Below, in pieces: positions 60,632 to 61,057 of a DNA stretch of 64,000 nucleotides (its first letter is position 1; every line of letters starts with the position of its first letter). The translations under genes were made by a program, and so were the position numbers. The DNA is taken from assembly GCA_963772365.1 (NCBI GenBank), contig CAVYXA010000003.1, forward strand, positions 576,001 through 640,000, in the 5' to 3' direction. Under the pieces are notes generated by a model. It had not been told where the DNA came from and did not search any database. It saw only the letters and a list, made by a program, of their open reading frames with translations. This DNA comes from an uncultured Verrucomicrobiae bacterium (GTDB lineage Bacteria > Verrucomicrobiota > Verrucomicrobiia > Chthoniobacterales > UBA10450).

Positions 60632-60750
60632 GCTTCTAAATAGAACGGCTGCGAGCCTGGGGCAAGGGGCCAGCTTCAGAGGCGGACGCTTCTCCCGTTT
60701 CCCTGCTGACCCTCAATCTCTGCAATTTGCGGCATTACTGGCACCGATGC

Positions 60751-60779
60751 TTGCACGATTGGGCGCGTCTCTCTATTTT
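60751..60779 (+). promoter_or_regulatory. Putative sigma70-type promoter of the upstream tRNA-like copy
   Basis: TTGCAC-N17-TATTTT, paralleling the element at 60849. Confidence 0.5.
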
Positions 60780-60797
60780 CTCGGCTTCTGAAAACTC

Positions 60798-60847
60798 GCG
60801 CGATTAGCTGAGTGGCGAAGCTGTCGCCGCCGGCGACAAGTCGCTGG
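60798..60847 (+). pseudogene. tRNA-Val-derived 5' fragment with replaced anticodon arm
   Basis: GCGCGATTAGCTGAGTGGCGAAGCT-GTCGCCGCCGGCGAC-AAGTCGCTGG versus the real tRNA GCGCGATTAGCTCAGTGGTAGAGCG-CTTGCTTCACACGCAAG-AAGTCGCAGG. Confidence 0.75.
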
Positions 60848-60848
60848 C

Positions 60849-60877
60849 TTGCGTGAGAAGCGCTGCTCTTCTAGTTT
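60849..60877 (+). promoter_or_regulatory. Putative sigma70-type promoter of tRNA-Val
   Basis: TTGCGT-N17-TAGTTT, about 18 nt upstream of the tRNA. Confidence 0.55.
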
Positions 60878-60895
60878 TCTCACTTCTGAAAACCC

Positions 60896-60967
60896 GCGCG
60901 ATTAGCTCAGTGGTAGAGCGCTTGCTTCACACGCAAGAAGTCGCAGGTTCGAACCCTGCATCGCGCA
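60896..60967 (+). tRNA. tRNA-Val(CAC), CCA not encoded
   Basis: GCGCGAT-TAGCTCAGTGGTAGAGCG-CTTGC TT CAC AC GCAAG-AAGTC-GCAGG TTCGAAC CCTGC-ATCGCGC-A. Confidence 0.97.
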
Positions 60968-60993
60968 GAGCTTTTTCACACGCTTGCCGGTTC

Positions 60994-61057
60994 GCGCGTG
61001 AATCGGTAGAGCGGTCGCCGCGGCGACAAGTCAGAGGTTCGAACCCAGCATCGCGCA
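60994..61057 (+). pseudogene. tRNA-Val-derived copy with shortened D arm and anticodon arm replaced by a GC hairpin
   Basis: GCGCGTGAATCGGTAGAGCG-GTCGCCGCGGCGAC-AAGTC-AGAGGTTCGAACCCAGC-ATCGCGCA. Confidence 0.75.

Follow-up and report, generated by a model that had tools for sequence, protein, structure and literature searches.

Defective tRNA-Val copies in a Verrucomicrobiae genome as probable relics of a tRNA-resident GIY-YIG nuclease and palindrome element

Described GIY-YIG systems and the tRNA-Val(CAC) locus

Two kinds of described nuclease come close to the system considered here. The Ssn family, which includes SsnA of Neisseria meningitidis with its NTS/SRM hairpin repeats, consists of small single-domain GIY-YIG enzymes that are reported to cut single-stranded DNA (ssDNA) next to the hairpin repeats by which the nuclease genes themselves are flanked (Chenal et al. 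2025, PMC11893778). SegB is a free-standing GIY-YIG homing endonuclease from the tRNA gene cluster of T4/T6 phages (PMC2330249; PMC13096335), and its nuclease activity is described as required for the recombination-dependent tandem amplification of the segment that carries tRNA and segB (PMC13096335). The present analysis concerns a 64,000-nt stretch of DNA (the window) on contig C3 of G000, the genome of an uncultured Verrucomicrobiae bacterium, in which a functional tRNA-Val(CAC) gene is accompanied by two defective copies, copy 1 upstream and copy 3 downstream. In both copies the anticodon arm is swapped for GTCGCCG(C)CGGCGAC, that is, the 14-nt palindrome GTCGCCGCGGCGAC (PAL) or a version of it with an additional base at the centre. 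Both copies are probably dead, gene-less relics of a selfish element made of a tRNA-resident nuclease and a palindrome, with PAL placed over the anticodon arm. The element family resembles known kinds, namely the hairpin-associated small GIY-YIG nucleases and the free-standing homing endonucleases at tRNA genes. Such a selfish element seems not to have been described previously, as no description of a tRNA-resident GIY-YIG/palindrome element was present in the literature searched, which for the Ssn paper means its main text.

In relatives, the gene that partners PAL codes for a single-domain small GIY-YIG protein, as in Ssn (open reading frames, ORFs, of about 78-100 aa). Again as in Ssn, a conserved hairpin repeat with oriented flanks adjoins the gene, in many cases upstream as well as downstream, the hairpin changes from one nuclease lineage to another, and solo hairpins are found elsewhere in the genome. 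In contrast to Ssn, PAL exactly replaces a tRNA arm, within a partial tRNA copy that has an intact one beside it, and no nuclease gene is present in the window; the main text of the Ssn paper contains no occurrence of the term tRNA (PMC11893778). The similarity to SegB lies in the position of a GIY-YIG gene beside tRNA genes, which is found at tRNA-Pro in relatives and not in the window; moreover, SegB cleaves within tRNA genes, and its tandem amplification resembles the 2- to 5-unit arrays reported below. However, SegB belongs to phages, has a C-terminal part past the catalytic domain (a C-terminally truncated form is studied in the 2026 SegB paper, PMC13096335), acts on double-stranded DNA and involves no palindrome replacing a tRNA arm, whereas the proteins found here have about 80 residues, are chromosomal and have no separate C-terminal DNA-binding region.

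REP/RAYT and IS200/IS605 elements, which are named in the discussion of PMC11893778, provide a further comparison. IS200/IS605 transposases are hairpin-recognising HUH enzymes, and in these systems short GC-rich palindromes spread with a small enzyme gene that they flank and gene-less copies outnumber the autonomous ones. PAL likewise spreads with a small enzyme gene that it flanks, and its gene-less copies are the commoner, but the enzyme is a GIY-YIG hydrolase rather than an HUH transesterase and the target is a defined tRNA hairpin position.

The locus was read directly in the sequence and by repeat finding. The first-pass annotation had described a duplication of promoter, leader and tRNA 5' half at a 98-nt period, a third copy downstream and the swap of the anticodon arm in both aberrant copies, and all of this was borne out. 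Indeed, 60772-60815 matches 60870-60913 at 82% over 44 nt. The 5' part of copy 1 (60798-60822) differs from the real gene at 5 of 25 positions, which breaks the D stem; the copy is truncated within the 5' strand of the T stem, and the promoter-like stretch of the real gene starts directly after AAGTCGCTGG. Copy 3 comprises a shortened 5' part, GCGCGTGAATCGGTAGAGCG, that ends in GGTAGAGCG, followed by PAL, AAGTC, a T-arm-like stretch and ATCGCGCA. It is 78% identical to the 3' part of tRNA-Val over 46 nt by repeat finding, and PAL takes the place of the 17-nt anticodon arm exactly, between GGTAGAGCG and AAGTC. Copy 3 keeps GGTTCGAAC and the 3' acceptor strand; as a small correction to the first-pass description, its T stem is mismatched and its 5' acceptor strand pairs over only 5 bp. 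The T-stem strands differ among the three units, with GCTGG in copy 1, AGAGG/CCAGC in copy 3 and GCAGG/CCTGC in the real gene. The scrap of GAGC, TTCACACGC and GGTTCG reported next to the real gene is also present, and is probably a decayed further piece of tRNA-Val. The second promoter-like stretch (P2), its leader and tRNA-Val lie between PAL(L), which starts at 60823, and PAL(R), which starts at 61014, and the nuclease gene is missing.

Scoring by tRNA detectors, which the first-pass annotation had proposed, singled out the real gene. In this region ARAGORN calls a tRNA only there, leaving copies 1 and 3 uncalled, and the same holds for Rfam RF00005 at E<=1. The minimum free energy fold of the real tRNA-Val(CAC) is a cloverleaf (z -2.33). 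The fold of copy 3 is no better than those of shuffled sequences (z +0.09) and is not a cloverleaf, and its substituted arm has a 4-nt loop instead of the 7-nt anticodon loop; copy 1, which has neither T loop nor 3' end, forms the palindrome hairpin only. As ssDNA, the 15-nt PAL(L) is predicted to form a 7-bp hairpin (-7.3 kcal/mol, z -2.8). P1, the promoter-like stretch of copy 1, may act as a promoter judging from its letters; a scan of 60400-61300 with sigma-70 promoter and terminator consensus sequences gave no site of either kind, P1 included. A split tRNA, with halves joined via the palindrome as in Nanoarchaeum, was considered and discarded, because the locus has an intact tRNA-Val and the half copies, besides being decayed, do not pair.

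If at most one mismatch is allowed, the window contains two matches to PAL where 0.05 would be expected, and two are reached in 1 of 100 shuffles; the second of these matches is at 37200, and the 15-nt form of copy 1 is not counted. The features of the locus are collected in Table 1.

Table 1. Positions of the tRNA-Val(CAC) gene, its defective copies and the flanking genes in the window.
Feature	Position	Strand	Basis
OsmC-like gene, flank	60179..60631	-	Pfam PF02566, E 6.9e-16
P1, promoter-like stretch of upstream copy (CTTGCA ... TATTTT)	60749..60784	+	sequence; duplicated with leader at 98 nt
Leader 1, CTTCTGAAAAC	60785..60795	+	sequence and repeat finding
Copy 1, dead tRNA-Val 5' part, palindrome and AAGTCGCTGG	60798..60847	+	alignment to real gene
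PAL(L) GTCGCCGCCGGCGAC, PAL with one extra central base, replaces anticodon arm	60823..60837	.	sequence
P2, second promoter-like stretch	60848..60882	+	sequence, repeat finding
Leader 2, CTTCTGAAAAC	60883..60893	+	sequence and repeat finding
Functional tRNA-Val(CAC)	60896..60967	+	ARAGORN; Rfam RF00005, 75 bits, E 1.3e-15
Scrap: GAGC, TTCACACGC (anticodon loop and start of 3' stem), GGTTCG	60968..60993	+	sequence
Copy 3, dead near-full-length tRNA-Val copy	60994..61057	+	sequence, repeats, alignment
PAL(R) GTCGCCGCGGCGAC, replaces anticodon arm	61014..61027	.	sequence
Glu/Leu/Phe/Val dehydrogenase (gdhA-like), flank	61104..62444	+	Pfam PF00208, E 6.2e-89; PF02812, E 4.8e-51

Some other features of the window may be recorded. 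The one-mismatch PAL at 37200-37213, GTCGCTGCGGCGAC, has flanks that are not tRNA-like. Positions 60848-60861 (CTTGCGTGAGAAGC, on the -35 side of P2) match the reverse complement of the real anticodon arm at 13 of 14 positions. A different palindrome, CTCGCCGCGGCGAG, is present at 54521-54534 and at four further sites of C3, making five copies on that contig; four of them have conserved, partly palindromic flanks, ..atcg(t/g) CTCGCCGCGGCGAG (a/c)cgatccacc, and by appearance they form a REP-like family. On the minus strand, 57766-60006 codes for a 746-aa protein with multicopper oxidase and plastocyanin-like domains and a C-terminal dockerin domain.

Recurrence of the palindrome and its nuclease partner

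When the whole region was searched against relatives, the sequence of copy 3 alone recurred beside tRNA-Val in other genera. The pattern PAL-NNGTC-NNN-GGTTCGAA, with at most two mismatches, was found in 66 of 201 genomes of the family, a tally that takes in the unpublished genome G151, and in 23 of 36 genera, while the reversed pattern used as a control gave 0. A search of other tRNA loci and relatives, also proposed at first pass, returned the same pattern. In these partial tRNA copies GAGCG-PAL-A(A/G)GTC occupies the position of the anticodon arm. The variable loop, T arm and acceptor assign the fragments to two classes, those of tRNA-Val(CAC), which lie beside that gene, and those of tRNA-Pro(UGG or GGG). 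An unselected census of the tRNA-Val(CAC) loci of 40 relatives covered 32 loci in 30 genomes, among them G000; it excluded the unpublished G008 and any genome in which the tRNA-Val(CAC) gene could not be recognised. PAL, with at most two mismatches, was present within 700 nt at 6 of the 32 loci and missing at 26, and all five fragments detectable by tRNA similarity lay beside PAL.

The individual parts of the locus recur as well. The architecture of copy 1 is found in G001, L274, L266, G079 and G145 (G and L designating genomes and loci, respectively), and relics between tRNA-Val and the dehydrogenase gene, the place of copy 3, in G131, G116, L263, L270, L271 and L277. The leader CTTCTGAAAAC also precedes tRNA-Val in G001 and at loci of genus g10, and homologous pairs of P1 and P2 are present in G001 and L274. 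The T arms and acceptors of the relics of relatives decay without compensation, and the changes that are seen in PAL break the palindrome rather than keep its pairing; in the relic of G010 the T arm is heavily decayed and PAL is exact. The argument made from the window, that random decay is unlikely to have produced one exact replacement twice, is right, and the identical palindrome recurs at the identical tRNA position across genera and phyla.

PAL is typically flanked by RCG on its 5' side and ARGTC on its 3' side, and the 4 nt before it read (A/G)GCG also in relics that have lost the remainder of the D arm. Among the 48 tRNAs of G000, RCG at 24-26 together with ARGTC at 44-48 is present in only five (Pro-UGG, Pro-GGG, Val-CAC, Ala-UGC and Ala-CGC), which fits a site defined by the hairpin and its flanks, in a test that is partly circular as the flank sequences had themselves been derived from relics of Pro and Val. 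Three solo exact PALs are present away from tRNAs in G000 (C1:709972, C1:760021 and C1:1746579), each flanked by RCG in one orientation, and two of them are followed by a second hairpin, GTTTCGGC-N5-GCCGAAAC.

The partner gene is found at tRNA-Pro loci, where an intact tRNA-Pro is followed by an ORF of about 80 aa and then, about 7 nt past the stop codon, by the fragment with PAL. This ORF (79 aa, hereafter Pro type) codes for a single GIY-YIG domain (PF01541, E 2.3e-13 over residues 1-67), and its stop codon is part of GG-TAG-AGCG, a remnant of the D loop. At 8 of 11 loci the fragment and the neighbouring tRNA-Pro have identical T arms and acceptors. Units of about 300-320 nt are also found in tandem. 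At most loci PAL follows the ORF at a distance of about 7-25 nt, and several loci have PAL on both sides of the ORF. A D-arm remnant was also considered as a constant feature of the spacer between tRNA-Pro and ORF; it was found only at L050 and L045 and so is not general.

In a protein search of the 201 family genomes, Pro-type sequences were recognized by at least 57% identity and E of about 1e-18 or better, other GIY-YIG proteins being about 40% identical. GIY-YIG proteins were present in 146 of the 201, a tally that takes in the unpublished G014, G151, G171 and G188. For 23 further Pro-type ORFs without a pattern match, PAL (at most two mismatches) was found within 110 nt downstream in 18 cases, upstream only in one and not at all in four. 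The closest solved relatives of the Pro-type protein are UPF0213 BH0048 (1zg2, E 7.9e-5) and EF2693 (1ywl, E 3.1e-4), which are weakly similar structural-genomics entries with no named function. Against NCBIfam, none of three GIY-YIG proteins scored above cut-off, the only match being TIGR01453 at 24 bits against a cut-off of 56. A subfamily of about 95 aa (L213-L230), about 40% identical to the Pro type, is located mostly away from tRNAs; these paralogues are followed by one to three copies of a REP-like hairpin, CCGCGTGAGGCGAAGCCTTTTACGCGG, and are nearer to the published Ssn pattern.

The exact sequence RCG-PAL-ARGTC is present in at least 120 stretches of a collection of species-representative genomes, of which 80 were taken with their flanks and underlie the per-locus counts that follow. 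By title, these 80 loci belong to Verrucomicrobiota (53), Planctomycetota (16), Elusimicrobiota (4), the Candidate Phyla Radiation (4), Chloroflexota (2) and Kribbella (1), and PAL is found letter for letter in metagenome-assembled genomes (MAGs) titled as at least five phyla. An intact tRNA lies within 450 nt at 67 of the 80 loci and a GIY-YIG ORF is present at 49. The ORF accompanies 40 of the 47 loci with a tRNA-Pro neighbour, 4 of 5 with tRNA-Ala(GGC), both with tRNA-Arg(GCG), 1 of 3 with tRNA-Val(GAC) and none of 10 with tRNA-Val(CAC). A maximum-likelihood tree was built with PAL-locus proteins chosen by DNA motif only and non-PAL proteins picked by low identity to the query. In this tree a branch with support 96/83 sets 41 of the 42 PAL-locus GIY-YIG proteins, and with them the G183 protein, apart from the paralogues of the same family and the three proteins of G000 itself. 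Recurrence across genera and phyla and the link to one GIY-YIG nuclease clade support the suggestion made at first pass that the copies are scars of a hairpin element that targets anticodon arms.

Cassette arrangements, turnover and other palindromes

Three recurring arrangements indicate that PAL brackets a cargo of promoter and tRNA, with or without the nuclease gene. The overall order is 5' relic, PAL, ARGTCGC, promoter, tRNA, the ORF if present, PAL and 3' relic. The first consists of tRNA, ORF, D-loop remnant, PAL, variable loop, T arm and acceptor. The second consists of the native promoter, leader, 5' acceptor and D arm, PAL, ARGTCGC(0-3 nt), a second promoter, leader and the intact tRNA, and is repeated in tandem five times at about 105 nt in L137, three times in L144 and twice in L101. 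In the third, the tRNA (and the ORF) is inverted with respect to the relic, as in L236, L237, L245, L247 and the tRNA-Pro of G001; inverted tRNA-Val loci are found in G009, G010, G011, G017, G110 and G170. The module is thus amplified in tandem, inverted and exchanged, and its tRNA-derived parts decay while PAL stays.

The tRNA-Val(CAC) loci are gene-less also outside the window. A GIY-YIG ORF was found at none of 16 distinct PAL-bearing tRNA-Val(CAC) loci (tblastn, E<=1e-3), as at none of the 10 of the cross-phylum set, some genomes being in both. The Val relics have only the 14 nt of PAL in common with the tRNA-Pro cassettes, while their AAGTC, T arm and acceptor are Val-specific. The genes of tRNA-Pro(UGG) and tRNA-Val(CAC) have in common the 11-nt TGGTAGAGCGC before and GTCGCAGGTTC after the anticodon arm, and these stretches make a short-patch conversion from a PAL-bearing tRNA-Pro relic to tRNA-Val possible.

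Turnover of alleles was followed in genus g10, where the tRNA-Val(CAC) locus was obtained from 28 of 41 genomes and PAL was searched within 260 nt. PAL is present at 10 of the 28 loci (6 upstream, 4 downstream) and at none of the other 18. Allele A (GAGCG...AAGTC) is found at 11 loci and allele B (GAGCA...GGGTC) at 17, both of them in either orientation to the OsmC-like gene as judged by crude sequence markers. L274 has the architecture of the window: P1, leader, a dead 5' half resembling allele A, PAL, AAGCCGCAGG, P2, leader and an intact gene of allele B. L275 carries allele B alone with the same flanks as L274, and in L263 the relic that comes after allele A shows a third variant of the T stem; relics are often unlike the resident tRNA-Val allele. 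The start of P2, CTTGCGT(G/T)AGAAG, is common to the window and L274, which is from another genus and has CTTGCGTTAGAAG at the corresponding junction.

Within the genus of G000, G001 has the upstream Val relic and not the downstream one. Five kb away in G001, tRNA-Pro(GGG) carries a full inverted cassette, and the same site is empty in G000, so that one site has both an occupied and an empty allele, as expected of a free-standing homing endonuclease. On C52:1-7500 of G011 (L212), two 100% identical 48-nt PAL relics of tRNA-Val lie in direct orientation with about 6.9 kb between them. This segment carries genes for a family-2 glycosyltransferase, an SMC-like ATPase and an OLD-family (AAA_15 and TOPRIM) nuclease, no integrase is found among the six ORFs tested, and the segment may be cargo inserted at a PAL relic.

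Similar units with other palindromes are present in G000, where partial tRNA copies lie within 1.5 kb at 4 of 48 tRNA loci (Val, initiator Met, Asn and Lys) with a palindrome at each break. At the initiator tRNA-Met (C1:377035-379175), five tandem 321-nt units each contain a GIY-YIG ORF and a tRNA 3' fragment with TCCGGCAGCTGCCGGA, the ORF stop codon lying inside the anticodon-loop remnant. The tRNA-Asn beside this array has its own GIY-YIG ORF, with TCCCGA-N5-TCGGGA in the 5' and 3' relics, and tRNA-Lys(UUU) at C6:1-1100 (L057) has a GIY-YIG ORF and CCCCGAAAGCTTTCGGGG in both relics. In G183, a tRNA-Pro(CGG) cassette encodes a 50%-identical nuclease and carries the palindrome TCCGCCTTTGGCGGA. 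The distinct palindromes at these loci indicate that each nuclease subfamily has its own.

Further variants were noted. CCCCGAAAGCTTTCGGGG also adjoins tRNA-Ala(CGC) at about C3:409230, near a one-mismatch PAL. The tRNA-Pro relics at L244, L246 and L248 (G079, G108 and G118) have a second PAL in place of the T loop, which in L244 and L246 reads GCAGGTT-PAL-TCACCCCGA, and a further hairpin, CCCGCCACAGCGGG, in their variable region. ARAGORN also places at C5:80873-80964 of G000 a tRNA whose type is undetermined and whose anticodon has four bases (gaaa).

Competing explanations, proposed mechanism and significance

Several observations weigh against reading the copies as relics of a nuclease element. 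No Pro-type nuclease gene is found in G000, where the best tblastn matches (37-40% identity) belong to other subfamilies in an assembly that is 90% complete. Among the 19 family genomes with a Val relic, a Pro-type ORF is full-length in 8, truncated in 3 and missing in 8, G000 among the latter, and intact PAL therefore persists without its presumed partner. No ORF-bearing tRNA-Val(CAC) locus was seen that would attest a full cassette as the ancestor of the Val relics. The stability of the hairpin formed by the 14-nt PAL is ordinary given its base content (DNA fold -4.6 kcal/mol, z -0.34), and its cleavage by the Pro-type nuclease is a prediction from the Ssn enzymes. Moreover, the SRM consensus HGTCWYN(0-2)YYVSBRHN(0-5)WNVSBRGN(0-2)RNCYNB is unmatched on either strand in copy 1, copy 3 and the initiator Met and Asn units of G000; with this motif unmatched and the C-terminal domain absent, the partner protein may be likened to Ssn or SegB by its architecture, while membership of either is not established.

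The cross-phylum evidence has its own weak points. The non-PAL proteins of the tree are of low identity by choice, so only the clustering of the PAL-locus proteins is informative, and one of these, L154, falls outside the clade on a long branch. Mis-binning of MAGs may inflate the number of phyla; L163 is titled Limnocylindria and is Verrucomicrobial in look, and L124 (Kribbella), which is without a tRNA, is probably a chance match. Finally, the locus is contained in no public read run (<=0.07 of sampled words). Contigs from four runs (two RNA and two DNA libraries) matched 60650-61150 only over the tRNA and short PAL/T-arm pieces, and their loose ends belong to other organisms (the end of a GIY-YIG ORF and a tRNA-Pro acceptor).

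Of the other explanations, the one that survives best, improbable as it is, makes PAL a REP-like palindrome useful to the host as a protein site, insulator or transcript stabiliser, its location in dead tRNAs being incidental. Such a role could account for an exact PAL amid decayed flanks in G010, for its presence in genomes without a detected Pro-type nuclease and for the three solo exact PALs off tRNAs in G000, two of them beside GTTTCGGC-N5-GCCGAAAC. It sits badly, however, with the 26 of 32 tRNA-Val loci in the family census and the 18 of 28 in g10 that have no PAL, with the varying position and orientation of PAL and with the way PAL tracks one nuclease clade across phyla.

Slightly less credible still are functional anticodon-less mimics, decoys or RNase P/Z signals serving the tRNA or the dehydrogenase gene, which had been among the first-pass options. 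Copy 1 does have its own promoter-like stretch and leader, copy 3 retains GGTTCGAAC and the 3' acceptor strand, and a PAL relic lies between tRNA-Val and the dehydrogenase gene in several genera. Against mimics and decoys, ARAGORN and Rfam (E<=1) call the real gene only, the fold of copy 3 is at the level of shuffles with no cloverleaf, copy 1 has a broken D stem and copy 3 a broken T stem, and in relatives T arms and acceptors decay uncompensated while changes in PAL break the palindrome. A processing signal ahead of the dehydrogenase gene finds no support, as in the close relatives G001, L273 and L275 no relic lies between tRNA-Val and that same downstream gene.

Partial tRNA copies are otherwise known to derive from integrases and CRISPR spacers, as treated in a preprint that also deals with island integration (bioRxiv 10.1101/2022.07.05.498093), and neither source fits the window copies. 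It is very unlikely that the fragments are attachment-site scars of integrase-type islands at tRNA-Val. As with such islands, partial copies adjoin an intact tRNA gene, which is preserved while foreign DNA enters, and the identical 48-nt relics of G011 flank about 6.9 kb of other genes. Unlike island scars, the window copies are adjacent, within 140 nt of the gene, and they include a 5' half together with its promoter; the anticodon arm does not serve as a crossover, a foreign palindrome having taken its place; and no recombinase gene stands beside the window relics, whose neighbours are the OsmC-like and dehydrogenase genes, nor any integrase among the G011 ORFs. An assembly artefact, or chance decay after simple tandem duplication, is the least probable of all: short repeats can mis-assemble and no reads of the locus were found, but independent assemblies match (copy 1 in G001, L274 and L266; copy 3 in G131, G116 and L263) and the identical 14-mer recurs across phyla.

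The reading as relics of a nuclease element would be accounted for by the following sequence of events. In the autonomous form, a GIY-YIG gene of about 80 aa would have on one side an intact tRNA, in most cases tRNA-Pro, and on the other a partial copy of that tRNA bearing PAL. By analogy with Ssn, the nuclease may recognise PAL, and perhaps the natural anticodon-arm hairpin with the same flanks, as an ssDNA hairpin and nick beside it. Recombinational repair, of the sort seen with SegB, could then duplicate the tRNA unit and copy PAL into the spare copy. Only events that spare an intact tRNA would survive, and PAL would be tolerated in the spare copy for that reason. At tRNA-Val(CAC), PAL would have arrived alone, possibly by short-patch conversion from a PAL-bearing tRNA-Pro relic. 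The window copies would be inert products of such duplication and PAL-copying events, most likely with no present function.

A bolder and rather doubtful extension is that PAL and its nuclease propagate themselves, overwriting hairpin arms of tRNA genes flanked by RCG...ARGTC and driving serial replacement of tRNA alleles together with their promoters within and between phyla, with PAL-marked dead tRNAs as landing pads for cargo. The cargo would then be a bare tRNA in the window, the nuclease gene elsewhere and the segment of about 7 kb with OLD/SMC-like genes in G011, inserted, inverted or amplified. Self-propagation of this kind would define a new class of mobile element, with a hydrolytic hairpin nuclease and not a transposase or integrase.

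If the copies are indeed relics of a nuclease element, a module of about 300 bp made of a nuclease and a palindrome duplicates, kills and replaces tRNA genes in many uncultured bacteria of soil and water. This would explain recurrent tRNA fragments other than integrase scars and would warn annotators of pseudo-tRNAs. The small nucleases, each with its own short hairpin site, would be of interest as ssDNA tools like the Ssn enzymes. Collectively, the family would offer a testable case of nuclease-driven amplification and allele turnover in bacterial chromosomes, for which phage SegB has until now been the only example.

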